Assembly (NCBI GenBank): GCA_021796115.1 | Contig: JAJYOP010000006.1 | Location: forward strand, 8,359-72,358 | Source: a bacterium | GTDB lineage: Bacteria > Omnitrophota > Gorgyraeia > Duberdicusellales > 4484-171 | Length of the DNA stretch: 64,000 nucleotides | Reading direction: 5' to 3' | Shown: piece by piece, positions 2,804 to 38,228 of the stretch | Layout of the letters: every line of letters begins with the position of its first letter | Numbering within the stretch: the stretch's first letter is position 1 | Translations under genes and position numbers: made by a program | The notes under the pieces: model-generated | What the model was told of the DNA's origin: nothing | The model's input: only the letters and a program-made list of their open reading frames with translations | The model's database searches: none

Positions 2804-2995
2804 CACAGATACGCGCAGGTTGCATAAAGTGTTCGCAGACAATTTTATCTATAATCTGCGCGTGTCTCGTGTTTTTATGTCCTGATTGCCGCACTTGTGA
2901 TATAATTTCAACCATTGAGTTCCAGGGAACAGGGCGCAGGTTAAACCATATTGGGCCCTGAACCCTGCACTCTGAAACTTGTTTAAAATAAGAAT

Positions 2996-4699
2996 ATGCT
3001 TAACGAACTTACGATAAAAATCGCAGGCGAAGCAGGCCAGGGAATGCAGACTGTCGGATTCAATCTTTGCCAGCTACTTAAAAGAACCGACTTTTACATT
3101 TTTGCCAATCAGGATTACATGTCCCGTGTGCGCGGCGGGAATAACTTTTTTCAACTCCGCATCTCACAAAAGCCTTCACAAGCTTGCCGAAAATTGAGCG
3201 ACATAATTGTTACGCTTGATAAGCAAAGCGTAGCTATCCATGGCACCAATCTTTCCGAAGGCGGCATACTCATAATGGATAGCAAAAAATTCAACATTGC
3301 CCAAGAAGAACGTTATTTTGATATTCCAATGTATGAAATGGCACTTAGCCTAGGTAGCGATTTATTCGTCAATTCGATAGTTTATGGATTAATTTCAGGG
3401 ATACTGGGTATAACCAACGGCAATATTTTTGAAGTTATTAAGGAAGCTTTTTCCGATAAGGGTGAAGAACTGATTTCAAAAAATATTGCCGCCGCAAAAG
3501 CTGGCATAGACTATGCGAAAAATAATTTCAAGGATGAAAGGTTTTTTATGACAGCAAGAACCGGAGAGCGTACTCTTCTGATGAACGGCAATGAGGCAAT
3601 TGCCCTGGGCGCGATACGCGCGGGTTGCAAATTTTATTCCGGTTACCCAATGACACCCTCAACAAGCATCATGAATGAAATGGCATATCACGCAAAAGAT
3701 TTTAATATCATAGTCGAACAGGCAGAAGACGAAATTGCGGCAATAAATATGGTAATCGGCGCTTCATTTGCCGGCGTAAGGGCGATGACAGCCACATCTG
3801 GCGGCGGCCTTTCTTTGATGGTCGAAGGATTATCGCTTGCGGCGATGACGGAAACGCCCGCAGTAATAGTAGATGCACAAAGGCCTGCGCCGGCCACGGG
3901 ATTTCCTACGCGCACTGAACAGGCTGATTTAAATTTTGTACTTTATTGCGGACACGGAGAATTTACCAGAGCAGTATTTACTCCGGGAACGATTGAGGAA
4001 GCCTACTATCTTACTATTCATGCTTTTAATCTTGCCGAAAAATATCAAATCCCGGTTTTGATTATGACTGATCAATATCTTGCCGATTCTTACCGCAACA
4101 TTTCAGAGCTTGACCGGAATGCGATAAAAGTTAAACGCTTTATTATCTCCAGAGAAGCTTCGAAAAACATTACAAATTATAAAAGGTATGAATTAACCGA
4201 TTCAGGCATATCGCCTCGCGCAATACCTTCCTGGATAAATGATGTAATCTATGCCGACAGCGATGAGCATAACCAAGAAGGCCATATCACCGAAGAGGCA
4301 AGAGTACGCGAGAGTATGGTAGAAAAAAGGCTTTATAAGAAAATGCAGGGCCTTGAGAAAGAAGTTATTGAGCCAAAATCTTATAACTTTGAAAAAGCAA
4401 CGATTGTAATTATCGGGTTTGGCTCAACTTTCGGAGCGATAAAAGAAGTTTCTGACGCATCTTCAGGAAAAATAGGGTTTATTCACCTTCCACAGGTTTG
4501 GCCTTTACCGAAAAAAGGACTGACAGATCTTTTAAAAAGCAAACAAAAGGTTATAACCGTAGAAAATAATGCTTCCGGACAGCTTGCAAAATTGCTGCAT
4601 TCCGAAGCCGATATAAAAATTGAAAAATCTATCCTTAAATTTGACGGAAGGCCGTTTAACGCGGACGATTTAATTGAAGAAGTAAATAAGTTATTATGA
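2996..4699 (+). CDS. 2-oxoacid:ferredoxin oxidoreductase, fused gamma/alpha subunit
   Basis: N-terminal gamma-type domain (IAGEAGQGMQTVG) followed by an alpha domain (GYPMTPST, AEDEIAA). Followed by the beta subunit gene. Confidence 0.85.
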   Translation: MLNELTIKIAGEAGQGMQTVGFNLCQLLKRTDFYIFANQDYMSRVRGGNNFFQLRISQKPSQACRKLSDIIVTLDKQSVAIHGTNLSEGGILIMDSKKFNIAQEERYFDIPMYEMALSLGSDLFVNSIVYGLISGILGITNGNIFEVIKEAFSDKGEELISKNIAAAKAGIDYAKNNFKDERFFMTARTGERTLLMNGNEAIALGAIRAGCKFYSGYPMTPSTSIMNEMAYHAKDFNIIVEQAEDEIAAINMVIGASFAGVRAMTATSGGGLSLMVEGLSLAAMTETPAVIVDAQRPAPATGFPTRTEQADLNFVLYCGHGEFTRAVFTPGTIEEAYYLTIHAFNLAEKYQIPVLIMTDQYLADSYRNISELDRNAIKVKRFIISREASKNITNYKRYELTDSGISPRAIPSWINDVIYADSDEHNQEGHITEEARVRESMVEKRLYKKMQGLEKEVIEPKSYNFEKATIVIIGFGSTFGAIKEVSDASSGKIGFIHLPQVWPLPKKGLTDLLKSKQKVITVENNASGQLAKLLHSEADIKIEKSILKFDGRPFNADDLIEEVNKLL

Positions 4700-12257: not shown

Positions 12258-12377
12258 ACCCTTTTTGCCAGAATTCCACAAGCGAAGCCCGGGGGCTGGT
12301 GGCGGAAAGTGGCGTCGCCCGCGCTTTAAGCGGGCAAAATAAAAATGGCCCACGGGCTTTAGCCGTGCGGGTTTCAG
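12258..12377 (+). repeat. R1 repeat copy C
   Basis: aaccctttttgccagaattcc...ggcggaaagtggcgtcgcccgcgctttaagcgggcaaaataaaaatggcccacgggctttagccgtgcgggtttcag. Confidence 0.85.
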
Positions 12378-21896: not shown

Positions 21897-21971
21897 AATG
21901 AGAGGGGCAATAGTTTTTTGACTTCTCTCTTCTGTTTTCTGTCTTATGTCGCCATGATCATGAGTTACGAC

Positions 21972-21999
21972 TTGACAAAGAAATTTTTTTTAGTATATT
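21972..21999 (+). promoter_or_regulatory. sigma70-like promoter
   Basis: TTGACA (21972-21977), 16-nt spacer, TATATT (21994-21999). Confidence 0.4.
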
Positions 22000-22140
22000 T
22001 TATTTGTAAACACGATTAGCACAAATGTGGGATGCTTATCGGCAGGCAGGAATTTCCCACGAATAAAAAATGAATTTGTTTTCTATTCATGGCAATTCGT
22101 TTCTAGTTCGTGATAATTTGTATGTAAAAAAGGAGAAGCT

Positions 22141-22320
22141 ATGGCGAAAAAAATAGATAAGAAAAAAGAATCAGCAGAAAAATATTCTAAAGACGAAATA
22201 GCTAAAATATGCGAAAGAGCATATTTTATTTGGTTGAATAAATCAAAGCCGGCGAACAGTGCTCTTTCCGACTGGCTTCAGGCAGAGACAGAATTGAAAA
22301 AAGAACGTAAAATTAAATAA
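22141..22320 (+). CDS. DUF2934-like small protein (59 aa, below ORF-track cutoff)
   Basis: aaggagaagct ATG. ICERAYFIWLNKSKPANSALSDWLQAETEL resembles the 7764 protein. Confidence 0.6.
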   Translation: MAKKIDKKKESAEKYSKDEIAKICERAYFIWLNKSKPANSALSDWLQAETELKKERKIK

Positions 22321-22368
22321 GAGCCGGTTTTTTTGATTTTTTAATAACGCAATGCATGGGAGGTAAAG

Positions 22369-22587
22369 ATGGCAAAGGCGAGAACTATTAAATGCCCGGA
22401 ATGCCAAGATGAGTTTGAGTTAGAAGATTATTTAGAGGTGGGAGATACTACTTTTTGCGTAAGTTGCGATACGGAGCTTAAAGTTGTTAAGCTTGACCCT
22501 CCTCAAGTTGAGATAGTTGCTGTCAATGAAAATGAAGATGAAGGGCAAGATTTTGATGAAGATGACGCGGAAGATGAAGATTTTTAA
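22369..22587 (+). CDS. LysW-like zinc-ribbon protein with long acidic C-terminal tail
   Basis: IKCPECQDEFELEDYLEVGDTTFCVSCDTELKVVKLDPPQVE parallels Thermus LysW (CPECGAELRLEN..VCEDCGAELEVVGLDPLRLE). Tail is NENEDEGQDFDEDDAEDEDF. Confidence 0.65.
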   Translation: MAKARTIKCPECQDEFELEDYLEVGDTTFCVSCDTELKVVKLDPPQVEIVAVNENEDEGQDFDEDDAEDEDF

Positions 22588-22600
22588 AAAGGAGGATTAA

Positions 22601-23050
22601 ATGTTTAAAAAGACTTTACCCGTATTCTTAATCGCAATAGCCCTGTTGTCGCTGCCTAGTTTTGCTGAAGAAAAAAAGAGCAACGTTCCGCCGCAAGCTG
22701 CTAATACTACCGCACAAACCGCAGTTTCCAAAGAGCAGCCAAAGGCCCAAGTTCAGCCACAAACTACGCCGCAAAGTGCCCCTCAGGAAGAAGTCGTTAA
22801 GGGCGTAATAAAAGAGATAGCTAATGACGGAAGCTATGTAATTGTTAACGATACAAAAATCCTTACGACCAAAGAATTTCTGGAAGATTCATACCTCGAA
22901 GTTGGAGACAATGTAGAAATCACGGCAGAAAAAACTGACCAGGGCCTTAAGGCAAAGAGCTATAACTATATTTTTGAGGAAGAAGGCTCCACAGCAACTC
23001 CGGATGAGCCGTCTAATGACAGCACTGAAGAGTCGCCTCAAGGGTATTAA
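22601..23050 (+). CDS. secreted acidic protein of unknown function
   Basis: Signal peptide LLSLPSFA-EE, then a Q/P-rich linker and a small globular domain. Confidence 0.6.
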   Translation: MFKKTLPVFLIAIALLSLPSFAEEKKSNVPPQAANTTAQTAVSKEQPKAQVQPQTTPQSAPQEEVVKGVIKEIANDGSYVIVNDTKILTTKEFLEDSYLEVGDNVEITAEKTDQGLKAKSYNYIFEEEGSTATPDEPSNDSTEESPQGY

Positions 23051-23070
23051 TCATTTGGAATGATTATCAA

Positions 23071-23108
23071 ATAGCCCTCTCATATTCGTAATGAAAGGGC
23101 TATTTTTA
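23071..23108 (+). terminator. rho-independent terminator
   Basis: Stem atagccct/agggctat followed by ttttt. Confidence 0.6.
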
Positions 23109-23110
23109 TT

Positions 23111-23228
23111 AATCCCTTTTGCCAGAATTTCACGGGCTTCGTCCGTGGATGAATAGCGGAAAGGGGCGTCGCCTGCGCTTTAAGCGGGTAAAAAAAAGAC
23201 CTACAGGTTTTGCCTGTGCGGGCTCCAG
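23111..23228 (+). repeat. R1 repeat copy D
   Basis: aatcccttttgccagaatttcacgggcttcgtccgtg...gcggaaaggggcgtcgcctgcgctttaagcgggtaaaaaaaagacctacaggttttgcctgtgcgggctccag. ORF 23119..23313 is an artefact. Confidence 0.85.
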
Positions 23229-23331
23229 TGAGCACGTGATTTTTTCAAGCGACCGAAGGAAGTGGAGAAAAAATCACAGTGCGAATTACCCCTCAAGCGA
23301 AGCGAAGGGGTAATGCAAAGAGAGGAGAGGC

Positions 23332-24477
23332 TTGAAGTTAAGCAAATATAAAAATTTGAACACTTCTCTGGAGGATGAGCCCGACGGATGTAAAAATGAA
23401 ATATCCCAAAAAGAAAGCTGGCATAGCACATATTCGAATTCGCTAAAAAATATAGAAGACCTGTCAAAATTTATTTTCATTCCCGAAGCCGAAAAACCTG
23501 CCTTAAAACAAGTAATCAGAACTTTCCACATGAGAATACCTTTGTATTATCTTTCTTTAGCAAAAAATTTAAATAACTCTAACGACCCTATACGCAGGCA
23601 ATGTATCCCTTCTATTGAAGAGATAGAAAGAGAAATCCATGAAAAAATAGATCCGCTTGGCGAAGAAAAAACTTCGCCGGCACCTTGCCTTATCCATCGC
23701 TATCCCGACCGGGCTCTTTTGATAGTAACCGGAAGATGTTTTATGTATTGCCGCCACTGCACGCGAAAAAGATTATGGAGAAGCAGAATACCCGAGCCAG
23801 CCCTAAAGGATATTGAATTAGCTCTTGCCTACGTAAAGGAGAACAAAGAAATAAGAGAGATAATAGTATCCGGAGGAGACCCGCTAACTCTCCCCACAGA
23901 AAAATTAGATTACATCCTTTCTCTCTTAACGAACATTAAAAATATTGAGGTTATACGTATAGGCACAAGAGCGCCTGTGGTATTTCCTCAAAGAATAGAC
24001 GAAAATTTATGTAAAGTCATTGAAAAATACGAAAATCTCTGGATTAATACCCAATTCAACCATCCTGATGAAATTACCGCGCAATCGATACTTGCCTGCA
24101 AAATGCTTCAACGCTGCGGTATTGCCATAAGCAATCAATCGGTGCTTCTAAAAGGTATAAACGACAATATCAAAACAATGCTTGAGTTGTGCCATAAACT
24201 TCAAAATATAAGGGTGAGGCCGTACTATCTTTATCAGTGTGATCCGGTTATAGGTGCGCATCATTTTAGAACTTCTATATGGAGGGGCATAGATATTCTT
24301 GAAAATATGCGAGGACATACCAGCGGTATGTGTATACCTACCTTTGTCGTTGATGGTATAGACGGTAAAGGGAAAATTCCTATCGGGCCCAACTACGTTC
24401 TTTCTGTTTCGCCTGAAGGGCTTACACTTAGAAATTACAGAAACGAAATTTTGTTTTATTTTAATCCTAAGGAATAG
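23332..24477 (+). CDS. KamA-family radical SAM aminomutase (lysine 2,3-aminomutase-like)
   Basis: CFMYCRHCTRKR cluster motif, GGDPL, YLYQCD..GAHHFR. TTG start after agaggagagg. Confidence 0.85.
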   Translation: MKLSKYKNLNTSLEDEPDGCKNEISQKESWHSTYSNSLKNIEDLSKFIFIPEAEKPALKQVIRTFHMRIPLYYLSLAKNLNNSNDPIRRQCIPSIEEIEREIHEKIDPLGEEKTSPAPCLIHRYPDRALLIVTGRCFMYCRHCTRKRLWRSRIPEPALKDIELALAYVKENKEIREIIVSGGDPLTLPTEKLDYILSLLTNIKNIEVIRIGTRAPVVFPQRIDENLCKVIEKYENLWINTQFNHPDEITAQSILACKMLQRCGIAISNQSVLLKGINDNIKTMLELCHKLQNIRVRPYYLYQCDPVIGAHHFRTSIWRGIDILENMRGHTSGMCIPTFVVDGIDGKGKIPIGPNYVLSVSPEGLTLRNYRNEILFYFNPKE

Positions 24478-24598
24478 TAATAGAGATAGAATACGAAATT
24501 ATGAAGGACGATGGACGAGAGATGAAGGGCGATTCTATCGTCTTTCATCTCTCTTTATTCGTCCATTGTAACTCGAGTTTTTCGGAGCGATAACCGCC

Positions 24599-25591
24599 TT
24601 GCTGAATAAAATAGCGATAACCTTCAATCTAAAAAAAAGCGGCGCAAAGGACGATAGTTTTGCTGAATACGATGAGATAGAAACTATCGATGCCTTGGAG
24701 AAAGAATTGAAATTTTTTGCGCATTCAATTGTTCGTATCGAACAAACCCCAGATATAATAAAAAATCTAATAAAAGAAAAACCGGATTTTGTTTTTAACA
24801 TCGCAGAAGGCATAAATTCTGGCCGCGCAAGAGAATCCCAAGTTCCCGCTGTATTGGAAAGTTTAAATATACCCTATTCCGGTTCGGATCCGATAGCCCT
24901 GGGAATCGCTCTTGATAAATACCTTACAAATATTATATTAAAATATGCCGGGGTGCCGGTTCCTTTTGCGTTTATTATAAAAGATAAAGGCACTTTACCT
25001 TGCTATAAGAATATTTTCAGGAATAAAAAGAAATTTATAGTAAAACCCCGCTGGGAAGGTTCGTCAAAAGGCATATTTTCTGATTCCGTTGTTTGTGATT
25101 TCGAAAAATTAAAAGAAAAATTTTTTTATATAGTTTCTAAATATAAGCAACCGGCATTGGTTGAAGAATTCCTCCAGAAGGACGAAATTACTGTTGGCGT
25201 TTGCGGCAACGCTGAGCCGGTCATTTTAGGCATGATGCGCTTAAGCCAGGCCAATGGCAAGGGGCTATTTTTATATTGCCAGGAAAATAAACGTGATTGG
25301 CAAGCTAAAGTCAAATATGAATCGAAAAATTCAATACCCAAAAAAATTCAAAAAATCATAAAAGAAAACGCCATCAAGGCTTTTACGGCGCTTGAACTAA
25401 GAGACGTTGCGCGTATGGATTTCAGGCTTGATAAAAATAACATCCCCCATGTAATAGATGTTAACCCTTTACCGGGATTATCGCCCATTTACAGTGATTT
25501 GCCGATACTTTGCAAATTGGAAAACAAAAACTACAGCTATCTGATAAAAAAAATAATGTCTGAAACCTTAAAAAGAAATCGTTTAGCTTGA
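24599..25591 (+). CDS. ATP-grasp ligase, D-Ala-D-Ala-ligase-like (paralog 1)
   Basis: FNIAEGINSGRARESQVPAVLESLNIPYSGS, KPRWEGSSKGI and DVNPLPGL are typical Ddl-type ATP-grasp blocks. Confidence 0.8.
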   Translation: MLNKIAITFNLKKSGAKDDSFAEYDEIETIDALEKELKFFAHSIVRIEQTPDIIKNLIKEKPDFVFNIAEGINSGRARESQVPAVLESLNIPYSGSDPIALGIALDKYLTNIILKYAGVPVPFAFIIKDKGTLPCYKNIFRNKKKFIVKPRWEGSSKGIFSDSVVCDFEKLKEKFFYIVSKYKQPALVEEFLQKDEITVGVCGNAEPVILGMMRLSQANGKGLFLYCQENKRDWQAKVKYESKNSIPKKIQKIIKENAIKAFTALELRDVARMDFRLDKNNIPHVIDVNPLPGLSPIYSDLPILCKLENKNYSYLIKKIMSETLKRNRLA

Positions 25592-25604
25592 TCTTATAAA
25601 AAAA

Positions 25605-26903
25605 ATGAAAAAAATATTGCTGCTGTTTTTTCTAATTATAATTTGCCGTCCGGGCTTCTGCTCTGATGAGATAAATTTTTCGGCAAAAGACCGAGTTATT
25701 ATCTTTTCACCGCATCCGGACGATGAAATTATCGCCCTGGGAGGGTTAATCCAGAAAGTTTTAAAATCCGGAGCGAAACTAAAAATCGTTTACCTTACTA
25801 ACGGAGAATATAACGAAATAAATTATTTGTTTTATAAAAAACAGGCAGCTGTGTCGCCAGCAGGTTTTATCAAGATAGGAAAGGTTAGGGAAAAAGAAGC
25901 CTATGATGCGACTGGCGCTTTAGGCGTTGACAAAAAAGATTTAATATTTTTAGGCTATCCGGATAGATTTACAGAGGCCATCCTTACCAGCTTTTGGAAT
26001 AAAAAATGGCCCGCATCAAGCATGCTTACGCATATAAGCAAGGTTCCGTATAAAGACGCTTTATCTTTCGGCGCGCCTTATATAGGTGAAAGCATACTTA
26101 ACGATATAAAAAATGTTTTAAATGATTTTAAGCCGACAAAAGTTTTTCTATCGAGTCCTCAAGATACGAATCCCGACCATCGTGCTATGTATGTTTTTCT
26201 AAACGTTGCCTTGCTTGATTTAAAAGATAAATTCGTCCCGGATGCGCAATTTTCCTATTTGGTGCATAAGCCAGGCTGGCCAAAGGGAAAAAAATACCTT
26301 CCTTCTTTTGAGTTGGCTCCTCCGGAGGAGTTTACCGCTAGCGACGTAACTTGGATTAAGGTCCCGTTGAGCAGAAACGAGGTGGAGGATAAATATAAGG
26401 CATTGCTTCTTTATAGAAGCCAGCTTTCTCTGGGCAAGTATTATCTTGCGAGTTTTGTCAGATCAAACGAACTTTTATGCAAATATCCGGTTATCGCTAT
26501 GCGGCCCAAAGTTAAGAATGAAAGCAATAAATTTGAATCTAACCTGGTTTCCAGAATAACTTATTCAAGGGACGATGAATTTTTATACATTAATATTATA
26601 TTACGCAAAGCTATAGCGCCGACTATAAAGGCCGATATATATTTATTAGGTTACAGCTCAACTAAAGATTTTTCTCTTATGCCCAAAATATTTTTTAAAG
26701 TAAAAGACCGAAGCGCGATAATATATGATAAACGAAAAAGAATTTTTATCGATAATTTAAAAACCATTTCACGAGGCAATGCCATATTGATTAAATTTCC
26801 CCTTAAGGCACTGGATAATCCGCAATACGTTTTCAGCAGAATTATTCTTAAAGGAAATTTGCTCGCTTTGTATGCTTCAGCGTGGAGAATACTTGAGCTC
26901 TGA
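25605..26903 (+). CDS. PIG-L/LmbE-family de-N-acetylase with signal peptide and extra C-terminal domain
   Basis: FSPHPDDEIIALGG and NPDH motifs. N-terminal MKKILLLFFLIIICRPGFCS. About 130 extra C-terminal residues. Confidence 0.8.
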   Translation: MKKILLLFFLIIICRPGFCSDEINFSAKDRVIIFSPHPDDEIIALGGLIQKVLKSGAKLKIVYLTNGEYNEINYLFYKKQAAVSPAGFIKIGKVREKEAYDATGALGVDKKDLIFLGYPDRFTEAILTSFWNKKWPASSMLTHISKVPYKDALSFGAPYIGESILNDIKNVLNDFKPTKVFLSSPQDTNPDHRAMYVFLNVALLDLKDKFVPDAQFSYLVHKPGWPKGKKYLPSFELAPPEEFTASDVTWIKVPLSRNEVEDKYKALLLYRSQLSLGKYYLASFVRSNELLCKYPVIAMRPKVKNESNKFESNLVSRITYSRDDEFLYINIILRKAIAPTIKADIYLLGYSSTKDFSLMPKIFFKVKDRSAIIYDKRKRIFIDNLKTISRGNAILIKFPLKALDNPQYVFSRIILKGNLLALYASAWRILEL

Positions 26904-26911
26904 TTCGTAAC

Positions 26912-27898
26912 ATGGCAAAAAAACATACCATCCTAATTACGCTTGCTAAAGAAAATACCGGCAGAAAAGACATATCGGATGTTTTAAGGTGCAAAAAATC
27001 TATTTGTAAAATTTTATCCCAAAAAAAGACAAGGCCCAAAGTACTTTTCGTTAAAAGAGATGATTTCAACGCTGCTCAAAAACTTAAAAAAACAATTTTA
27101 AATAAAAAACCTTCCTGTATTTTTAATCTTTTCGAAGGTTTCAGCGATGAACCGTCTAAAGAGGCGGAATTCGTTAAAATTCTCGAAACTTTGGAGATTC
27201 CTTTCACCGGTAACTCGTCGTTTACGCTTAATTCATGTTTGGATAAGGCAAAGGCAAAGCGTATTTTAAAAGCTAAAGGCATTAAGGTGGCCGACGGCGT
27301 TATCGTAAAAAATATTAAAAAAATAAAAATGCCGGAAATAAAATTTCCTGTTTTTGTAAAGCCCCGTTTTGAAGATGCCAGCGTGGGCATAAACCGCGAT
27401 TCTCTTGTTTTTAACCAAGGAAAATTATTGAGTCTTTTAAAAACGCGCTTGAATGAATTTCCCGCAGGGCTTCTCGTCGAAAGTTTTCTGCCCGGTAAAG
27501 AATACAGCGTGGCATTTCTGGGTAACGGCCCGTATGAAGTACTAGGCATATCCACGATAGATTATTCACGATATAAAAAATTGCCGCATTTTTTAACTTA
27601 CGCTTCAAAATGGGATAAAATGGCAGGCGAATTCAAAAAAATTTTGCCTTACTCTAACGCCAGGATTGGCAAGAAATTAAAAATAATAATAAACAAAGCC
27701 CAAAAAGCCGCAACCGCGCTTGGTTGCAGGGGGTATTTCAGGGTAGATTTACGGGAAAAAAACGGATACGTTTTTGTGATAGACGTAAACCCTAACCCCG
27801 ATATAAATTGCGACAGCGGGTACATAAAACAAGCCTGCAAGAAAGGTTATAGCTATGCCGGAATTATCGAAAAAATAATTAATTTAGCCGGCGCCTGA
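26912..27898 (+). CDS. ATP-grasp ligase, D-Ala-D-Ala-ligase-like (paralog 2)
   Basis: FNLFEGFSDEPSKEAEFVKILETLEIPFTGN, KPRFEDASVGI, DVNPNPD. Confidence 0.8.
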   Translation: MAKKHTILITLAKENTGRKDISDVLRCKKSICKILSQKKTRPKVLFVKRDDFNAAQKLKKTILNKKPSCIFNLFEGFSDEPSKEAEFVKILETLEIPFTGNSSFTLNSCLDKAKAKRILKAKGIKVADGVIVKNIKKIKMPEIKFPVFVKPRFEDASVGINRDSLVFNQGKLLSLLKTRLNEFPAGLLVESFLPGKEYSVAFLGNGPYEVLGISTIDYSRYKKLPHFLTYASKWDKMAGEFKKILPYSNARIGKKLKIIINKAQKAATALGCRGYFRVDLREKNGYVFVIDVNPNPDINCDSGYIKQACKKGYSYAGIIEKIINLAGA

Positions 27899-27963: not shown

Positions 27964-28179
27964 ATGGAAGAGCAAAATAAAATTCAAACTACCGCAACGG
28001 ATAAAACATCCAATACCGGCAAAACGGCAGCAAAAATAATTCTCGGAATAATATTCATTATTTTAGGGTTATTCGCCCTTATACGCTGGTGGCCAAGCCT
28101 GGTTACTCTCATCAAAGGGTTTATAGGTTTATTTTTGATTCTTGCCGGGGCAATTACTTTAGCGGTTGCCAAAGAATAA
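27964..28179 (+). CDS. small two-TM membrane protein
   Basis: aggaggtgg SD. Two hydrophobic helices. Confidence 0.5.
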   Translation: MEEQNKIQTTATDKTSNTGKTAAKIILGIIFIILGLFALIRWWPSLVTLIKGFIGLFLILAGAITLAVAKE

Positions 28180-30068: not shown

Positions 30069-30129
30069 TAAATTTCTGGTTAAGATTAATACTGTACCCT
30101 TAACCTTGCCCCCTGTACTTTGGAGAAAC

Positions 30130-33100
30130 ATGGATAAAGATTACGCCTTACAAAACGACGGAAGTTTTATTATAAAAAATTACAACAGCAAATACCCGTT
30201 CTCTAATTTTCTTCCCGGTGTTGCCGGCGAATGGGGTGTACCGATGTGGGTTTTTTACGTAAACCGCGCTCAAGGCATCGCCAGCTTCGGTATAAAAGAT
30301 AAAGACCATTCAATCAGCGAATTTTTCCCGGCCAATAACTCCTATTCTTTCACGCCCCTTGTGGGCTTCAGGACATTTTTGAAAATCAATAATGAGATTA
30401 ATTATGAGCCTTTCCGTGTTATTTCCGATTATGAACGGGAAGAGGAAATGGTTATCAAAAGCGCATCATTCCAAATAAAGAAAATAAACAAAGAGCTGGG
30501 CCTCGAATTTAACATTAAGTATTTCACCCTTCCTAATACGCCGGTCGGCGCTTTAGCAAGGATTCTTTCCATAAAAAATATTTCGCATAAAGAAGCAGAC
30601 CTTGAGGTACTTGATGGCCTGTCAAAAATAGTTCCCTTTGGCTTAAGCCATGTCCTTCTTAAGGATTTAGCGCGTACCCTTGAAGCCTGGATGCGCGTTT
30701 CGATAGGGGGCAGCCTTTCGCTTTTCCGGTTAATCGTTGACCCGAAAGATTCGAGCCAGACGAAATTCGTCGATGGCGCAAATTTTAATTATGCCTTTTA
30801 CGAAGATGATTCGAAAAAGATTTCGCCCTACTTAATCGTTGACCCGGGCAGCATATTTTCTTACGATACGTCTTACTCCTGGCCGATAAATTTCTTTAAG
30901 AAAGAGTTTAAAGCCCCGCTCAATCAGATAACCTGCGGCAAAACTCCGTGTGCTTTCAGCTATTTCAAATGGAAGCTTTCGCCGGGCGAAGCGAAAAATT
31001 TCTATAGCATTTTTGGCGCCTCTTTCAAGTCGGAGCTGGTAGAAAATTTTTCGAAAAATATAAACAGTGCATTTTTAAAAGCAAAAGAAAATGAGAATGA
31101 AAAAATAATCGAGGATATAAAAAACTCTTGCCTATGCGTTTCTGCCAGCAAAGAGCTCGATCATTATGTAAAGTGTTCCTACCTCGATAATGTTTTAAGA
31201 GGGGGGCTGCCTTACTCGTTTAATACGGTTACAAAAGATAAATATAATGTTTATTATATTTATTCGCGTAAGCACGGCGATCTGGAAAGGGATTATAATA
31301 AATTCAAACTTCTGCCCTCGCCTTTCAGCGAAGGAGAAGCGAATTACCGGGATATTAACCAGAATCGCAGGATAGATTTATTTTTTAACCCGCATATCGG
31401 TAAAAACAACATTATTTACTTTTTAAATCTTTTAAAAATTGACGGATATAATCCTCTGGTGGTTAAAGGGGAACGGCTTTTCTTTTCGAAAAAAGACGCG
31501 CTCGAGATTCTTAAACAATTCGGCATAAACAAAGATGAAAAAATTATTTCATTGATGATCTGCGGTTTTCACCTTGGTGATTTCTTCAAGCTTCTTAAAG
31601 AAAGGGGAATAAATGTTCTGAAAGGACAGCTTCTGGCAAGTACCATTGTCCAAAGAGCATCCAGGGAGCCATTTGCTTCGCACGGGGAAGGTTACTGGAT
31701 TGACCACTGGAGATATAATCTTGACCTTATTGAAAATTTCTTAAGCATTTATCCCGACCAGCTTAAAAGCCTGTTTCTAACCAGGGGCTATCTATTTTGG
31801 GATGACGAATTTAGAGTTAGGCCTAGATTTGCCAGGCTTCACGTGAAAGATAAAAAAGTCTATCAGTGGCATTCTGTGGAAGAGGTGGCGGCAAAAAAAG
31901 ATGAGCTGGGTAAGAGGGATAAATTTGCCAACTTCCTGCGTAACAAGAAGGGCAATATTTACCGCACAAACCTTTTTGAGAAAATTTTAACCCTGATTTT
32001 GAATAAAGCTTCGAGCCTTGACCCGGAAGGCATCGGTGTTGAGATGGAGGCGGATAAGCCTGGCTGGTGTGATTCCTTAAACGGCCTGCCGGCGCTATTT
32101 GGCTCATCGCTTTGCGAAACGCTTGAATTAAAACGCGCCTGTATCCTGATAAAGGAAACATTGGAAGAATTGAAACTTAAAGAAGTGGCTGTTTCCGATG
32201 AAGTTTATTCATTCTACGTAAAGATAGAGAGACTGCTTAAGAACTATCTGGATAGAAATGATAAAAAGCGTGATTTTGACTGGTGGGAAAAAAGTAATTT
32301 AGTAAAAGAAAAATTCAGGGAAGAGGCTTTTCGGACGCTTTCCGGTAAGACAAAAAAAATCTCCGCTAAAGATCTCAAAGAGTTTCTCGCGGGACTTATT
32401 GAAAAGTTGGATTACGGTATAGCCAAAGCGAAAGATTCGACCGGAATGTATACCACATACTTTACTTATGAGCTAAAAAAATACCGGCTGATGAATAAAC
32501 AGGTGGTACCGCTAGAATTTATAAAAAGAGCCTTACCGTATTTTCTTGAAGGGCCAATGCACGCTTTAAGAACCGAAAAAGACCCTCTAACGTATCAGGC
32601 GGTGAGAGTGTCGCGTCTTTTTGACGAAAAGCTCAAAAGCTATCGCCTTAACGATTCGCTTAAGAACGAGTCGCTTGAAATCGGAAGGAGCCGGATTTTT
32701 ATCCCGGGTTGGCTTGAAAATGAATCCATATGGCTGCATATGGAGTATAAGTATCTTTTAGAGGTCTTAAAGAACGGGCTTTATGATGAGTTTTTCGCTG
32801 ACTTTAAAAATTGCGCCGTCTGTTTCTTTGATCCCGAACGTTACGGAAGAAACATTCTTGAAAATTCTTCTTTCATTGTCAGCAGCGCTTATCCTGACAG
32901 AAGCCTCTGGGGAAAAGGATTTGTTGCGCGCTTGTCCGGCGCAACGGTTGAGCTCTTAAATATTCTTTTTGTGATGTATCTGGGTAAAACCCCATTTTTT
33001 ATGAATGACAGGGGCGAACTTTGCCTGCGTTTTACACCGATTTTAAAAGGAACTTTTTTTACGAAAACCGAAACCAGGATTGATACCGGAAAAAAGGAAA

Positions 33101-33327
33101 TTACTTTAGAGAAAAATTCATTTGCTTTTAAATTATTTTCAAGCACGCTTGTTGTCTATCATAATTCGGCGAGAAAAGATACTTTTAATAAGGATTGCCG
33201 CGTCGAAAAAATTGTAGTTACTGCCGCAGATAAAGAGCAGGTAATCAATGGCGACGTTTTGCCGCCGCCATTGAGTAGCCTCATACGGGAAATGAAGTTT
33301 GAGCGGGTGGATGTGTATTTTAAGTGA
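30130..33327 (+). CDS. very large (about 1065 aa) cytoplasmic protein of unknown function
   Basis: Uninterrupted ORF with no signal peptide or TM and no motif I can assign. ATG 30130 is preferred over the TTG inside the upstream repeat. Confidence 0.7.
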   Translation: MDKDYALQNDGSFIIKNYNSKYPFSNFLPGVAGEWGVPMWVFYVNRAQGIASFGIKDKDHSISEFFPANNSYSFTPLVGFRTFLKINNEINYEPFRVISDYEREEEMVIKSASFQIKKINKELGLEFNIKYFTLPNTPVGALARILSIKNISHKEADLEVLDGLSKIVPFGLSHVLLKDLARTLEAWMRVSIGGSLSLFRLIVDPKDSSQTKFVDGANFNYAFYEDDSKKISPYLIVDPGSIFSYDTSYSWPINFFKKEFKAPLNQITCGKTPCAFSYFKWKLSPGEAKNFYSIFGASFKSELVENFSKNINSAFLKAKENENEKIIEDIKNSCLCVSASKELDHYVKCSYLDNVLRGGLPYSFNTVTKDKYNVYYIYSRKHGDLERDYNKFKLLPSPFSEGEANYRDINQNRRIDLFFNPHIGKNNIIYFLNLLKIDGYNPLVVKGERLFFSKKDALEILKQFGINKDEKIISLMICGFHLGDFFKLLKERGINVLKGQLLASTIVQRASREPFASHGEGYWIDHWRYNLDLIENFLSIYPDQLKSLFLTRGYLFWDDEFRVRPRFARLHVKDKKVYQWHSVEEVAAKKDELGKRDKFANFLRNKKGNIYRTNLFEKILTLILNKASSLDPEGIGVEMEADKPGWCDSLNGLPALFGSSLCETLELKRACILIKETLEELKLKEVAVSDEVYSFYVKIERLLKNYLDRNDKKRDFDWWEKSNLVKEKFREEAFRTLSGKTKKISAKDLKEFLAGLIEKLDYGIAKAKDSTGMYTTYFTYELKKYRLMNKQVVPLEFIKRALPYFLEGPMHALRTEKDPLTYQAVRVSRLFDEKLKSYRLNDSLKNESLEIGRSRIFIPGWLENESIWLHMEYKYLLEVLKNGLYDEFFADFKNCAVCFFDPERYGRNILENSSFIVSSAYPDRSLWGKGFVARLSGATVELLNILFVMYLGKTPFFMNDRGELCLRFTPILKGTFFTKTETRIDTGKKEITLEKNSFAFKLFSSTLVVYHNSARKDTFNKDCRVEKIVVTAADKEQVINGDVLPPPLSSLIREMKFERVDVYFK

Positions 33328-35416: not shown

Positions 35417-37678
35417 ATGGGTATTCGTCAATCGGTTGCGGTTGCGTTATGTGTGAGACGTTTGACAATATCGTTTTTATGTTTGTTGTTTGTCCCGGTT
35501 TCTCTTTTTGCCGCGAACTCCGCGCCTGCGATTGGGGCAATAATTCCTCAACGCGGCTCGTCAGTTGCGAACCAGCTAACTTACTTTGTAACCACCTTCA
35601 GCGATGCCAACGGCTGGCAGAATATCCAATATGTTTATTCTATCGTCAATAATTCGACTTCCTGCAAAAACTGTTTTTATGGCTACTATAACCAGAATAC
35701 TAATAAACTTTACCTTCGAAATGACGCAAATACTGCCTGGCTTGGAGGATATGTTCCAGGGGCAGCCAAGGTAATCGAAAATTCCTACGCAAAGTTAGAC
35801 TGTTCAAAAACCACGATTAGCGGTTCAGGCAATAATCTCTCTGTTAAATGGGCAGTAACCTTTAAATCCACTTTTACCGGAGCTAAAAAATGTTATCTCT
35901 ACGTTAAAGATGATGCCAATGCCTATCAGGGCTGGTTACAAAAAGGAACCTGGACGATTAATCTACCTGATACTATCTCGCCTACTGGTTCAATAAAGAT
36001 AAATAATGATGCTCAATATTCCAATCTAAATACCGTTACCCTTAATCTCTCGGCAACGGATAACGTTGGCGGAAGCGGACTTTCGCAAATGCAGTTTTCT
36101 AATAATAATTCCACCTGGTCAACTGCTGAGGGTTATGCCACAACTAAAAGTTGGACTTTAGCTTCTGGCGATGGACAAAAAACCGTTTACGTTAAATTTA
36201 AAGACATTGCCGGCAACTGGTCGCAAAGTTACTCCGCTACGATTATCCTTGACACAACGCCGCCGGTTATTGTAATTACCTTCCCAGGTAACGGCGCCTT
36301 TGTTGATGAAGCGCAAATAAGGCTTGAGGGCACTGTTGATGGAATTGCTTTTTCCGAGAATGTTACTTTACCGCAGGAAGGCGAAAACATAATCACAAAG
36401 ACGGCTCAAGATAGCGCCGGTAATTCTGCCACGGCCGCTATAAAGGTAAACCTTTATAGCGGAGAATTAATCGGCGCCGAAGGAGGAGCAGTGGTTTCGC
36501 CTGACGGTAAGGTGAAGTTAACTATTCCAAGCGGTGCCCTAGCCTCCCCGACCAGAATAAGAATCAAGAATGTAAACAATTCTGTTTTAGCCAATACCGC
36601 TCCACAAAATGAGCCGCTAATCAGCGCGGTTGAATGCACACCTTACGGCCTTGTCTTCGATAAACCAGCAACCATGACTTATACGCTTAATCAGGCAGAA
36701 GTTCCGGGAACAACCGTTGAACTTGGATATTATGACCCTACCCAGAATAAGACCATTCCCACCGGCCAGGTCTCAAGCGTTGGAACTGACAGCTATACAA
36801 TTAATTTCCTTATTCAGCACTTTTCAACTTATGCGGCATTGAAGAATCTGGTATCAAGCGGAGCGCCAATTGGCATAGGCGTGCAAATCCCTCTTCCGGA
36901 TATGTTTACCGGTTCTTTCAGCCACGCCATACCGATTACGGTTTCGCCGGGCAGAAAAGGCATGCAACCGTCCCTTAGCCTCGCCTATCGCTCGTCTAAC
37001 CCAAATTCCTGGGTGGGTATGGGTTTTAGCCTTAATCCCGGCTATATTGTGCGCTCGACCCGTTTAGGCCCGCCATCCTATAACGATACCCAGGATACCT
37101 TCTATTTTATCACTGATGCTGGAAGTACCGAATTAGTCCATTTGACCGATAATCTCTATCAGGCAAAAATCGAATCAAGCTTTGCTAAATTTTTTAAAGA
37201 AACCGATGACTCCTGGAAAGTAGCGGGAAAAGACGGAAGCGTTTTACGCTTCGGCCAGTCATCTTCTGCCAAAGAAACTTCTCCTTCAGGAACCTTTGCC
37301 TGGTACCTTACAAAAGCTATCGATGCTAATAAGAACTATATTGAATATACCTATATAAAGGATGAGGGTAAATCCTATCTTTCCCGCATTGACTATACCG
37401 GTAACGAAGCCGGCTTTTCTCCGACAAACAGCGTTGAATTCTTCCTTGAGTCAAGAGAAGACACCCCTTCAAGTTATATCTCAAACGCCAGAATCGCCAT
37501 TGCCAAACGCCTTCATGAAATTCAGGTTAAAGTCAATTCGGAGTTGGTTTGGAGGTATGTCCTTGAATATGAATATAGCCAGGATACAAATCGTTCTTTA
37601 CTTAAATCCGTCAAGCAATACGGAGCAGATGGCAAGGTTCTACCGGAACAGAAATTGAGCTATCAGAAAGCGAGATAG
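35417..37678 (+). CDS. secreted Ig-like-repeat protein ending in an SpvB/TcaC-type N-terminal domain (probably a truncated Tc/Rhs-class protein)
   Basis: Signal peptide. SpvB-type block VSPGRKGMQPSLSLAYRSSNPNSWVGMGFSL...RSTRLGPPSYND. The ORF stops inside the gtcgat/ccatag word repeat. Confidence 0.7.
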   Translation: MGIRQSVAVALCVRRLTISFLCLLFVPVSLFAANSAPAIGAIIPQRGSSVANQLTYFVTTFSDANGWQNIQYVYSIVNNSTSCKNCFYGYYNQNTNKLYLRNDANTAWLGGYVPGAAKVIENSYAKLDCSKTTISGSGNNLSVKWAVTFKSTFTGAKKCYLYVKDDANAYQGWLQKGTWTINLPDTISPTGSIKINNDAQYSNLNTVTLNLSATDNVGGSGLSQMQFSNNNSTWSTAEGYATTKSWTLASGDGQKTVYVKFKDIAGNWSQSYSATIILDTTPPVIVITFPGNGAFVDEAQIRLEGTVDGIAFSENVTLPQEGENIITKTAQDSAGNSATAAIKVNLYSGELIGAEGGAVVSPDGKVKLTIPSGALASPTRIRIKNVNNSVLANTAPQNEPLISAVECTPYGLVFDKPATMTYTLNQAEVPGTTVELGYYDPTQNKTIPTGQVSSVGTDSYTINFLIQHFSTYAALKNLVSSGAPIGIGVQIPLPDMFTGSFSHAIPITVSPGRKGMQPSLSLAYRSSNPNSWVGMGFSLNPGYIVRSTRLGPPSYNDTQDTFYFITDAGSTELVHLTDNLYQAKIESSFAKFFKETDDSWKVAGKDGSVLRFGQSSSAKETSPSGTFAWYLTKAIDANKNYIEYTYIKDEGKSYLSRIDYTGNEAGFSPTNSVEFFLESREDTPSSYISNARIAIAKRLHEIQVKVNSELVWRYVLEYEYSQDTNRSLLKSVKQYGADGKVLPEQKLSYQKAR

Positions 37679-37713
37679 TCGATAGTCCATAGATAGAAAA
37701 AACAAAGGGAAAA

Positions 37714-38228
37714 ATGCAAATGGCATTTAAATTTGAAAAATTAAAAGTTTGGCAAAAAGGTTTAGTTTTACTCAAGGCATTCACGAATTAACAAGAAAAT
37801 TTCCCAAGGAAGAGCTGCATATATTGACTAGTCAAATTAAAAGGGCGGCTGATTCTATTGTTTTGAATATTACTGAAGGCTCTACCGGTAAGAGCGATGC
37901 AGAGTTTAGACGGTTTATTGGCTATGCATTACGTTCAGCAATCGAGGTTGTATCTTGTCTTTGTATCGGCAAGAAACGAAAAATAATTGACGATAAAGAT
38001 TTCGAAAATTTATACAAGCAGGTAAAAGTTCTAAAAGTCTTCAAAAACGAAACTAAATATACTCCTACAGATACCATACGAGTTTCATATTACAGTTGGG
38101 AAAAAGGCGTTCCCAAGGGAATTTCTACGATTTACATCGAAAAATACGGTTCAGACAAAAGCAACCTCTGGAAACTCATCGGCGGCAAAGCCCAAACCGG
38201 TGTCAGCCACGCACGCCAGACGAAATAG
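37714..38228 (+). pseudogene. four-helix-bundle protein gene (23S rRNA IVS protein / Avd-like family), frameshifted and fused to an unrelated tail
   Basis: MQMAFKFEKLKVWQK (frame 1) continues as RFSFTQGIHELTRKFPKEELHILTSQIKRAADSIVLNITEG in ORF 37749..38228. One extra A in the A5 run at 37754-37758 would join them. Confidence 0.7.

Follow-up and report, generated by a model that had tools for sequence, protein, structure and literature searches.

A divergent LysW-fold protein with a long acidic tail in Omnitrophota and its possible partnership with a beta-lysine/ATP-grasp gene cluster

In the window, the whole stretch of 64,000 nucleotides of Omnitrophota DNA analysed here, a gene for a LysW-like protein (Table 1) encodes a divergent member of the LysW fold, and we tentatively read its product as a polyanionic docking partner of, or an acceptor for, the beta-lysine gene cluster that lies downstream, a reading to which we give a probability of roughly 0.4. 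The protein would be cytoplasmic, with a LysW-type four-cysteine zinc ribbon joined to a disordered polyacidic tail capped by Phe, and it would be expressed, as the middle gene of a unit of three small genes, from the unit's own conserved consensus promoter. Its polyanionic, aromatic-capped tail may dock on basic partner proteins, physically as LysW does, and the protein may serve the cluster either as a stoichiometric adaptor or as the acceptor on which the ATP-grasp ligases act, with no reliance on the gamma-carboxylate of a fixed C-terminal Glu. We infer a physical or covalent interaction with one of the two ligases, AG1 or AG2, or with the PIG-L enzyme, and regard a new use of the LysW carrier fold in Omnitrophota as plausible.

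Table 1. Coordinates of the features discussed, numbered from the first position of the window.
Feature	Position	Strand	Remarks
Predicted sigma-70-type promoter	21972..21999	+	TTGACA, 16 nt, TATATT; 11/12 consensus positions; 5' of three-gene unit
DUF2934 gene, first of unit	22141..22320	+	59 aa, basic; Pfam DUF2934 36.6 bits (cutoff 22)
Shine-Dalgarno GGGAGG of LysW-like gene	22358..22363	+	5 nt 5' of ATG; direct sequence reading
LysW-like gene	22369..22587	+	72 aa; net charge -20; pI 4.05
Zinc-ribbon globular domain	22390..22515	+	residues 8-49; Cys9, Cys12, Cys30, Cys33
Disordered polyacidic tail	22513..22584	+	residues 49-72; internal DF, C-terminal Phe
Exported OB-fold protein gene	22601..23050	+	149 aa; AF2, Foldseek
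Hairpin + T-run, probable intrinsic terminator of small-gene unit	23069..23112	+	hairpin 23069-23105
Two short dispersed intergenic repeats, terminator-kamA interval	23156..23286	.	blastn copies
KamA-family radical-SAM aminomutase, probably lysine 2,3-aminomutase	23332..24477	+	TIGR00238 308 bits (cutoff 199)
AG1, Ddl-type ATP-grasp ligase	24599..25591	+	Pfam Dala_Dala_lig_C, E = 4e-25
PIG-L family deacetylase/amidase	25605..26903	+	Pfam PIG-L, E = 3e-25
AG2, second Ddl-type ATP-grasp ligase	26912..27898	+	net charge +31

The LysW-like gene is real and under strong purifying selection. Orthologues at 65-82% identity are present in many Omnitrophota contigs, and over the ribbon domain pN (0.09-0.15) lies far below pS (0.44-0.89), with dN/dS at approximately 0.05-0.15. 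On re-reading the sequence, the translated product, MAKARTIKCPECQDEFELEDYLEVGDTTFCVSCDTELKVVKLDPPQVEIVAVNENEDEGQDFDEDDAEDEDF, was found to be exactly as an earlier note on this DNA had described it, with CPEC (residues 9-12) and CVSC (residues 30-33) set apart by 17 residues, and then ELKVVKLDPPQVE and a tail of 24 residues that ends in EDEDF.

Profile searches and structure models together indicate that the fold is truly that of LysW and that the tail departs from the canonical one. The Pfam model PF21344 (Zn_ribbon_LysW) matches residues 8-48 at 34 bits, above its cutoff of 27, and the profile of the LysW-like family in turn matches Thermus thermophilus LysW (3wwl) with E = 1.8e-8. The AF2 model of the ribbon domain has five strands at pLDDT 79-91, and in a Foldseek comparison of the AlphaFold model with the PDB the top six matches were all LysW chains, the best of them (5eio_C) superposing with an rmsd of 0.9 Å and 43% identity over 44 columns. 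The resemblance to LysW remarked on earlier is borne out by all three comparisons. The FYDLN_acid family (PF09538), which also combines a zinc ribbon with an acidic tail, was considered and rejected; it is absent from the Pfam matches at E up to 1, and the protein contains no FYDLN motif.

The protein nevertheless belongs to a side branch that has diverged within the LysW fold, and is not an orthologue of LysW or ArgW, because the LysW/ArgW profile search proposed in the earlier note succeeded only with the Pfam domain model; both NCBIfam LysW models failed, the equivalog model TIGR01206 giving 31.7 bits where its cutoff asks for 53.2 and the domain-type model NF041070 giving 21 where 75 are required. 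The same conclusion follows from the lack of a C-terminal Glu or EDWGE sequence, and from the absence of any LysX/RimK-type ligase or lysYZJK gene in the 64 kb.

No other protein of the window is as acidic as the LysW-like one, with its -27.8 charges per 100 aa, and AF2 models residues 53-66 of the tail at pLDDT < 50. Phe is the terminal residue in 11 of 12 aligned homologues, namely in every close orthologue of 69-72 aa. A wider search for the subfamily (E < 1e-3) returned 463 representatives, and tail statistics were taken from 100 of these with a single ribbon, whose tails have a median length of 28 aa and consist of 45% D/E and 11% aromatic residues. An F, Y or W occupies the C-terminus in 35% of the 100, compared with 11% expected (p = 1.5e-10), while Glu does so in 19 and a WGE end is seen in one. 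Among the members linked to KamA the C-termini vary (EDF/EEF, QQY, GSYR, DGE, ENN, EDE, KEEF), and this variation disfavours loading in the style of LysW. All of the homologues that bear an organism name are from Omnitrophota. We delimit here a large Omnitrophota subfamily of long-acidic-tail LysW-like proteins by one LysW ribbon at the N-terminus, a disordered tail of at least 20 aa that is rich in D/E and interspersed with aromatic residues, and Omnitrophota origin; the protein of the window has each of these features, as well as the adjoining gene for an exported OB-fold/DUF5666-like protein, and belongs to this subfamily.

The DUF2934, LysW-like and exported OB-fold genes form what is predicted to be one unit, with its own promoter and a hairpin terminator. 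The promoter block, TTGACAAAG...TTTTTTAGTATATT, is invariant in eight relatives, in which the flanking DNA cannot be aligned. The DUF2934 gene lies 5' of the LysW-like gene in the clade of the window and in lineage L039 (lineages of related loci are given here by L numbers); in one case, on a 552-nt contig, the two form a single in-frame DUF2934::LysW-like ORF (P0169). The product of the third gene comprises a signal peptide, a low-complexity linker, an OB-fold domain (residues 62-124; AF2 pLDDT 89-96, order b1-b2-b3-helix-b4-b5) and an acidic C-terminal tail. Foldseek returned weak matches to OB-fold proteins, including CusF, SilF and YgiW, and the Pfam DUF5666 match is below threshold for both OB subtypes, which hhalign aligns with each other over 19 columns only, at a probability of 79%. 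A role as a CusF/SilF-like metal chaperone was considered for this protein and rejected, the likeness of fold being weak and the domain being devoid of Met, His and Cys ligands.

The hairpin that follows the OB-fold gene has 15-nt arms that are 93% complementary (dG -20.6 kcal/mol, z -4.9), and was not listed by a consensus terminator scan. Nine relatives were scanned, and seven of them have a hairpin and T-run between the small-gene unit and kamA, with unrelated stem sequences in the two distant ones; an equivalent hairpin with a T-run is present 3' of the OB-fold gene in L002, L011, L029, L033, L041 and L043. Of the two repeats further downstream, that at 23156-23212 has copies at 2062-2118, 12302-12339 and 2705-2733, and that at 23239-23286 has a copy at 47971-48018 (blastn). 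A search of the 281-nt gap before kamA for a riboswitch or other known RNA gave no Rfam match at gathering score, and the matches at E up to 1 were noise. The earlier note had placed a terminator and two repeats between the LysW-like gene and kamA, and had taken them to count against co-transcription; the elements are there, and separation by a hairpin and T-run is general among the relatives scanned.

The KamA-family protein aligns with the Clostridium subterminale lysine 2,3-aminomutase (2A5H) at 367 bits and conserves Asp293, Asp330 and Lys337; the first two of these residues rule out a reading as a glutamate 2,3-aminomutase. KamA is PLP-dependent and requires a free alpha-amino group, and attachment of its substrate through the alpha-amino group, as on LysW, would therefore be ruled out. 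AG1 and AG2 are assigned by Pfam, NCBIfam and PDB searches to the Ddl type, and not to the LysX/RimK type; the PDB matches of AG1 are Ddl proteins only, and its match to TTL, at 15.7 bits, is below the cutoff of 20.1. These two genes, which adjoin the KamA-family gene, are the only ATP-grasp genes in the window, and Pfam and NCBIfam scans of its 47 ORFs found no LysX/RimK, LysY, LysZ, LysJ or LysK, in agreement with the earlier description of an orphan whose only ATP-grasp neighbours are two Ddl-like enzymes beside a KamA-type aminomutase. The PIG-L gene is part of the cluster only in the clade of the window and in L039.

Comparison of gene orders indicates that the link between the LysW-like gene and the KamA-AG1 cluster exceeds local synteny. 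The two are neighbours in at least six arrangements that differ in their flanking genes and in which AG1 is approximately 50-55% identical: DUF2934, LysW-like, OB, KamA, AG1, PIG-L and AG2 in the clade of the window and L039; LysW-like, OB, KamA::AG1, AG2 and GNAT in L041/42; LysW-like, OB, KamA, AG1, AG2 and GNAT in L043; ArsR, LysW-like, OB and KamA::AG1 in L023/24; LysW-like and KamA in L050; and KamA, AG1, AG2, GNAT and LysW-like in L064/65, where the order is reversed and the LysW-like gene is downstream. Fusions of KamA with AG1 thus occur in two lineages (L023 and L041/42), and the two parts of the 728-aa fusion of L023 are 58% and 52% identical to the genes of the window. Adjacency would be expected at random in approximately 1% of cases in a 2-Mb genome; KamA/AG1 lies within 8-10 kb in two of the seven lineages retrieved with the LysW-like protein as query. 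With AG1 as query nine lineages were retrieved, of which five have the LysW-like gene beside the cluster and the other four lack it there. The link is therefore facultative, each part occurring without the other. In L034/36/45, L037, L038 and L044 no LysW-like gene lies within 8 kb of the KamA-AG1-AG2-GNAT cluster, and LysW-like genes are found beside PilZ and an uncharacterised radical-SAM gene (L010/18/19), beside a glucan-dikinase-like gene (L021), in an ArsR, OB, LysW-like operon (L022, L061) and beside MnmL (L025). The connection to the KamA and ATP-grasp genes drawn in the earlier note is supported by its recurrence and weakened by its facultative nature.

The charges of the proteins bear on how such a partnership might work. 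In all characterised amino-group carrier proteins a negative surface binds positively charged patches on the enzymes (PMC11726168), and the acidity of the LysW-like protein against the basic AG1 (net charge +12), PIG-L (+21) and AG2 (+31) of the window fits docking of the same kind. The strong promoter, the strong Shine-Dalgarno sequences and the terminator ahead of the enzyme genes would suit a small stoichiometric partner that is produced at higher levels than the catalytic enzymes, and the enrichment of aromatic caps across the family fits a docking peptide. The complementarity of charge is not general, however: in L023, L041 and L043, which have a linked LysW-like gene, AG1 and AG2 are neutral or acidic, and the proteome of the window is basic overall. 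AG2 has a charge of +12 to +31 in the clade of the window and L039, whereas clusters that lack a LysW-like gene have an AG2 of -5 to -19. The unrelated contexts of other LysW-like genes, the variable C-termini, the Ddl type of the ligases and the conserved terminator before kamA also count against this reading, and because the cluster occurs without the LysW-like gene, the partner would not be obligatory, unlike LysW in its own pathway. The suggestion of the earlier note, a carrier or scaffold for a non-lysine pathway, is favoured by the LysW fold and the recurrent link to the cluster, and is weakened by the lack of a conserved C-terminal acceptor and by the Ddl-type ligases.

The strongest rival, which we consider rather unlikely although not far-fetched, is that the LysW-like and exported OB-fold genes make up an independent two-gene module, chemically unrelated to beta-lysine. 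Such a module might, for example, respond to stress or to cations, or its acidic cytoplasmic member might act as a partner or holdase of the exported one; in some lineages the module would be under an ArsR/SmtB-type repressor, and its place beside the KamA cluster would reflect inherited gene order or shared regulation. The OB-fold/DUF5666-like gene is indeed the most constant neighbour of LysW-like genes, adjoining them in at least nine lineages (the clade of the window, L039, L041-43, L023, L025, L021, L022 and L061), and orthologues of an ArsR/SmtB regulator, 59-69% identical (NF033788, 79 bits against a cutoff of 55), head the unit in L022, L023 and L061, in the last of which the regulator gene overlaps the OB-fold gene by 4 nt. 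The module would also account for an invariant promoter of its own, for a terminator before kamA that is conserved across lineages, for the five of seven lineages from the LysW-like search with no KamA/ATP-grasp gene nearby, and for the four cluster lineages with no LysW-like gene. What it leaves unexplained is the KamA-AG1 adjacency that persists at approximately 50% AG1 identity while the flanks change, and the adjacency in the absence of an OB-fold gene, in the opposite order in L064 and directly beside KamA in L050. In L037 an OB-fold gene adjoins kamA without a LysW-like gene, so that the OB-fold gene itself appears tied to the cluster; moreover, the OB domain has none of the Met, His and Cys residues that would bind metal, and the two OB subtypes are barely alignable.

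A covalent form of the docking-or-acceptor reading, in which the protein is a strict amino-group carrier, as the suggestion of the earlier note would have it if taken literally, is improbable. Here AG1 or AG2 would load lysine or beta-lysine on a carboxylate of the tail, either the C-terminal alpha-carboxylate or an Asp or Glu side chain, the loaded group would be processed on the carrier, and PIG-L would release it. The recurrent KamA-AG1 neighbourhood and the amidase-type PIG-L of the window clade and L039 would suit such a scheme. Modification of acidic protein tails by ATP-grasp enzymes also has precedent, in the action of RimK on S6 and of TTL/TTLL on tubulin. Covalent carriage after loading by an ATP-grasp enzyme is, moreover, the only characterised function of the LysW fold (PMC11726168, PMC12998189). 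The scheme meets difficulty in the absence of a conserved acceptor residue or EDWGE-like motif, in the lack of PIG-L from most of the linked clusters, in the existence of the cluster without a LysW-like gene, and in the Ddl type of the ligases. We consider equally doubtful the proposal of a third amino-group-carrier system, widespread in Omnitrophota, in which Ddl-type ligases would beta-lysylate or otherwise aminoacylate a LysW-fold protein, on tail side chains or on the C-terminal carboxylate, with the donor supplied by a dedicated and sometimes fused lysine 2,3-aminomutase.

It is very unlikely that the protein is a genuine LysW or ArgW serving an alpha-aminoadipate lysine or arginine pathway encoded elsewhere in the genome, even though several orthologues are named 'lysine biosynthesis protein LysW' by NCBI and JGI and the Pfam LysW domain scores above its cutoff. 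With Phe at its end the protein offers no C-terminal Glu gamma-carboxylate for loading; TIGR01206 and NF041070 both failed; LysX, LysY, LysZ, LysJ and LysK genes are absent not only from the window but also from approximately 30 distinct related loci; and even the relatives that end in RWGE sit in the ArsR, OB, LysW-like context. Weakest of all, a chance ORF or annotation artefact is refuted by the conservation data, with pN far below pS, the four ribbon cysteines invariant across the family and 463 representatives at 50% identity clustering, and is at odds with the strong Shine-Dalgarno sequence, the conserved promoter and the confident structure model.

To our knowledge, carriers of the LysW type have been described only from the aminoadipate lysine pathway, the arginine pathway and a few actinomycete and Serratia natural-product clusters, all of them accompanied by LysX-type ligases and all with a C-terminal Glu, and we know of no cultured member of the phylum Omnitrophota. 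Our literature search found no paper that links LysW with Omnitrophota, none that describes the LysW-like subfamily, and none that connects an aminomutase to both an ATP-grasp ligase and beta-lysine. The gene stands for a large branch of this fold with another tail architecture and other partners, and the name 'lysine biosynthesis protein LysW' carried by several MAG annotations is wrong and could lead to the mistaken conclusion that Omnitrophota have an aminoadipate pathway. The recurrent pairing of the gene with a beta-lysine/ATP-grasp cluster that is conserved but uncharacterised offers a concrete target for heterologous expression, which is of value in such a phylum. A carrier or acceptor role, if true, would extend what is known of protein-tethered amino-acid metabolism and its chemistry; if it is false, the acidic zinc ribbon and the exported OB-fold protein make up an unexplained small-protein pair typical of the phylum.

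The LysW-like protein shares with LysW and ArgW (T. thermophilus 3wwl/5eio; Thermococcus 5k2m; Sulfolobus 3vpb) the four-Cys zinc-ribbon fold and the ELxVVxLDPxxxE strand, and like them it is small and strongly acidic with a flexible acidic C-terminal extension that contains an aromatic residue. The tail, however, has 24 residues here and approximately 28 in the family compared with approximately 8 in LysW, and it ends in Phe, with no EDWGE, where LysW ends in Glu; its gene neighbours are those for KamA, for ligases of the Ddl type and for the exported OB-fold protein, in place of the LysX/RimK-type ligase and lysYZJK of LysW. The carriers of secondary metabolism (vazabitide A, ficellomycin, azinomycin and Serratia Ser2) have the LysW fold and a pI of approximately 4, serve non-proteinogenic amino acids, and are encoded in clusters that retain LysX-, LysZ-, LysY- and LysJ-type enzymes, with the substrate held on the carrier C-terminus (PMC11726168). 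They offer the analogy drawn in the earlier note, that of an acidic LysW-fold carrier recruited to a non-lysine pathway, although none of those four enzyme types is encoded at the LysW-like locus.

Two further systems resemble the locus in part. In the RimK/S6 and TTL/TTLL/tubulin systems, the tubulin tail is acidic and capped by Tyr or Phe, much as the LysW-like tail is acidic, disordered, aromatic-capped and encoded beside ATP-grasp genes; as AG1 and AG2 are of the Ddl type, this likeness is one of analogy only. AblA and AblB, a lysine 2,3-aminomutase and a GNAT, form the pathway to N-epsilon-acetyl-beta-lysine, and the core cluster of the relatives likewise starts with a lysine 2,3-aminomutase, in which the lysine-binding residues Asp293 and Asp330 are retained, and has a small GNAT as its last member. 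It differs from AblA/AblB in the two Ddl-type ligases that lie in between, sometimes fused to KamA, and in the clade of the window a PIG-L enzyme is present instead of the GNAT.

The open reading frame described in the earlier note was read back from the sequence in every particular: its 72-aa product, of net charge −20, has CPEC at residues 9–12, a 17-residue spacer and CVSC at residues 30–33, followed by ELKVVKLDPPQVE and then by the 24-residue tail IVAVNENEDEGQDFDEDDAEDEDF. Pfam Zn_ribbon_LysW recognizes it (34 bits, cutoff 27), and the family profile matches LysW of T. thermophilus (3wwl, E = 1.8e-8) and of Thermococcus (5k2m, E = 1e-5). In the AlphaFold2 model, residues 1–50 form five strands (pLDDT 79–91) and the tail scores below 50; the top six Foldseek matches in the PDB were all LysW chains, led by 5eio_C (44 columns, 43% identity, rmsd 0.9 Å). 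The globular half is thus homologous to LysW.

Features of the LysW-like unit, the KamA cluster and nearby genes (window coordinates)
Feature	Position	Strand	Remarks
Promoter-like site	21972–21999		TTGACA, 16 nt, TATATT; upstream of the three-gene unit
DUF2934 gene	22141–22320		59 aa, basic; first of three small genes
LysW-like ORF	22369–22587	+	read from sequence, as in the earlier note
Exported-protein gene	22601–23050		149 aa; third of three small genes
Hairpin, then T-run	23069–23105		3′ of exported-protein gene; dG −20.6 kcal/mol, z −4.9
Two short dispersed intergenic repeats	23156–23212; 23239–23286		GC-richer; after hairpin, before kamA
KamA	23332–24477		matches C. subterminale lysine 2,3-aminomutase, 367 bits
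Hairpin, then T-rich stretch	24517–24553		17-bp perfect stem; between kamA and AG1
AG1	24599–25591		Ddl-type ATP-grasp
AG2	26912–27898		Ddl-type ATP-grasp
Membrane-protein gene	27964–28179		71 aa; after AG2
1073-aa ORF	30106–33327		~70% identity in related loci
ZU5/SpvB gene	35417–38228		753 aa; ZU5 and SpvB (toxin-complex) domains; span includes the intervening-sequence-protein gene that follows

A profile run against 1.84 billion representative proteins gave 463 with E < 1e-3, and the best 150 of these are mostly 60–115 aa long, with a single ribbon at the N-terminus ahead of a long acidic tail. Every homologue with an organism name comes from Omnitrophota, and a canonical 54-aa LysW ending ...EEDWGE (P0177) surfaces only as a weaker match. 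Among 100 non-redundant single-ribbon representatives, the median tail has 28 residues, 45% Asp/Glu, 11% aromatics and a net charge of −10; the last residue is Phe, Tyr or Trp in 35% (11% expected, p = 1.5e-10) and Glu in 19%, and one protein ends in WGE. A tail that is variable and acidic apart from an enriched aromatic cap resembles a peptide used for docking more than a site of chemical attachment. Six homologues (P0022, P0035, P0057, P0139, P0148 and P0160) have LysW-type ribbons in tandem, from two or three to as many as eleven per protein; the three whose sequences were read (P0057, P0139 and P0148) are basic and lack the acidic tail, a different architecture of this ribbon.

The LysW-like gene is the middle one of three small genes, and a Shine–Dalgarno sequence, GGGAGG, lies 5 nt before its ATG. 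The block containing the promoter-like site, TTGACAAAG...TTTTTTAGTATATT (21962–22015), is invariant in eight relatives, while the surrounding DNA is unalignable; in the window and in the related locus L011, an insertion of ~110–190 nt, including an inverted repeat, separates it from the DUF2934 start codon. The terminator and two repeats previously placed between the LysW-like gene and kamA are real: a stable hairpin with a T-run is present, and the two repeat families have other window copies (2062–2118, 2705–2733, 12302–12339 and 47971–48018). A comparable hairpin and T-run lie 3′ of the exported-protein gene in L002, L011, L029 and L033. The distant loci L041 and L043 have an equivalent hairpin and T-run with unrelated stem sequences; none was found 3′ of the exported-protein gene in L023. 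Related repeats occur several times in intergenic regions of locus L011/L013 (L011:1516–1588, 2884–3125). On a 552-nt ENA contig (P0169), DUF2934 runs in frame into the LysW-like protein as one 144-aa ORF. Either this fusion is natural, and would then link the two small proteins in function, or the stop codon was lost through an error of sequencing or assembly.

Downstream, KamA keeps Asp293, Asp330 and Lys337 of the C. subterminale enzyme (structure 2A5H), which hold the epsilon-ammonium group of lysine and the PLP cofactor, and its product is therefore probably beta-lysine. The PDB matches of AG1 and AG2 are solely Ddl and Van ligases, with no match to LysX, ArgX or RimK structures. A PIG-L deacetylase/amidase gene separates the two in the window, and the core order in relatives is KamA, AG1, (PIG-L), AG2, GNAT. 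AG1 homologues at least 49% identical are numerous, and the named ones are almost all from Omnitrophota. This mostly omnitrophotal cluster of KamA, two Ddl-type ligases and a small GNAT, with PIG-L inserted in some lineages and KamA fused to the first ligase in two, occurs at window 23332–27898, L023:3143–5329, L041:3641–5791 and in L034, L037, L038 and L064; plausible products would be an acetyl-beta-lysine derivative or a peptide that contains beta-lysine. Within the enzyme genes, the hairpin between kamA and AG1 is a further element that resembles a terminator or an attenuator.

Close relatives share the entire collinear 14-kb block from the PEGA gene to the 1073-aa gene and so say little about linkage; the distant cases are informative. 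With the LysW-like protein as query, KamA/AG1 lay within 8–10 kb in two of seven lineages sampled, the window clade and L023/24, the latter with the order ArsR, LysW-like, OB, 728-aa KamA::AG1 fusion (identity to the window genes, 58% and 52%). With AG1 as query against a metagenome collection, the LysW-like gene was directly upstream of KamA in five of nine informative lineages (window clade, L039, L041/42, L043 and L050), L041/42 again having the fusion, and was absent from that position in the other four (L034/36/45, L037, L038 and L044). In L064/65 it lies downstream (KamA, AG1, AG2, GNAT, LysW-like, radical-SAM gene), and the closest loci, L010, L018 and L019, share the flanking genes and lack the cluster. 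Adjacency thus recurs despite different flanks, gene orders and fusions, far above the ~1% expected under random placement, but the co-occurrence is facultative both ways. A 289-aa radical-SAM protein with only weak HpnJ-like/B12-rSAM-like matches is consistently encoded 3′ of long-tail (97–116 aa) LysW-like genes (L010:3939–4841, L018:7326–8195, L019:10829–11698, L064:9958–10359), sometimes with a PilZ gene between.

We propose that the LysW-like protein would be a polyanionic docking partner or acceptor serving the beta-lysine/ATP-grasp cluster, with a probability of about 0.4, covalent loading making up roughly half of that figure. This tie is favoured because it is the sole known use of the LysW fold, because the neighbourhood recurs, and because the unit shows the expression pattern expected of a stoichiometric partner: its promoter and ribosome-binding sites are strong, and a terminator precedes the genes for the enzymes. 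It is also favoured by the published generalization that carrier-dependent enzymes bind their acidic carrier through basic patches (PMC11726168). The charges in the window agree (AG1 +12, PIG-L +21 and AG2 +31 vs −20), although the pattern fails in L023, L041 and L043 and a generally basic proteome confounds it, which also counts against LysW-style covalent carriage. Against such carriage, moreover, the C-termini differ among KamA-linked members, the neighbouring ligases are not LysX-type, the KamA cluster also occurs without the LysW-like gene, PIG-L is mostly missing, and KamA requires a free alpha-amino group. The carrier or scaffold suggested in the earlier note is partly supported: the co-occurrence check suggested there is positive, though facultative, and the LysW-profile check suggested there fails at the whole-protein cutoffs of NCBIfam given below. 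The LysW fold and the recurrent cluster speak for it, and the variable C-termini and the ligase type weaken it.

Alternatively, the LysW-like protein and its exported neighbour might form a module independent of the cluster, which we consider somewhat less likely than that tie. In the exported protein, a signal peptide and a low-complexity linker accompany a domain (pLDDT 89–96, order b1-b2-b3-helix-b4-b5) that is confidently modelled as an OB fold; it resembles CusF, SilF, YgiW and nucleic-acid-binding OB folds weakly in structure and matches Pfam DUF5666 below threshold. At least nine lineages have an OB-fold or DUF5666-like gene of this kind beside the LysW-like one, homology between its two subtypes not being established on comparison; in L037 an OB-fold gene adjoins kamA without a LysW-like gene. 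An orthologous ArsR/SmtB-family regulator is the first gene of the unit in L022, L023 and L061 (operons at L022:7326–8449, L061:9273–10234 and L023:2060–3051). The gene right after the very acidic LysW-like protein of L022 encodes a 65-aa Lys/Ala-rich, histone-H1-like protein.

That the protein is a true LysW serving a pathway encoded elsewhere is very improbable; some of the probability falls to none of the readings considered here. The profile check supported the Pfam domain but not the whole protein, which scores 31.7 bits against the 53.2 required by NCBIfam TIGR01206 and 21 against 75 for NF041070; because it fails both models and lacks the C-terminal Glu/EDWGE, it has the LysW fold yet is not a LysW/ArgW orthologue, and the name 'lysine biosynthesis protein LysW' given to orthologues in several database records is not justified by these tests. 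As noted earlier, the window has no lysXYZJK genes: Pfam and NCBIfam scans of its 47 ORFs gave no LysX/RimK, LysY, LysZ, LysJ or LysK. An artefactual ORF is hardly credible at all: the gene is real, with 69–72-aa orthologues (65–82% identical) on many contigs, all named ones Candidatus Omnitrophota, non-synonymous divergence of 0.09–0.15 against synonymous divergence of 0.44–0.89 (near saturation) over the first 50 codons, and four ribbon cysteines invariant among 40 diverse relatives.

Beyond AG2, the 71-aa membrane protein, kept in all close relatives, has a precomputed Pfam match to the magnetosome protein MamI that is weak in some of them; the window showed no further magnetosome genes. 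For the 1073-aa ORF, its orthologue's precomputed Pfam record lists no match, and the ZU5/SpvB gene is followed by one for a 23S rRNA intervening-sequence protein of the four-helix-bundle family.

Our literature search found no paper on this LysW-like subfamily, on the KamA/two Ddl-type ligase/GNAT cluster, or on any grouping of KamA and Ddl-type ligases with a LysW-like gene. Whereas LysW is defined by its C-terminal Glu/EDWGE, the protein described here ends otherwise, and its subfamily forms a branch of that fold which is divergent, typical of the phylum and different in both tail and partners.
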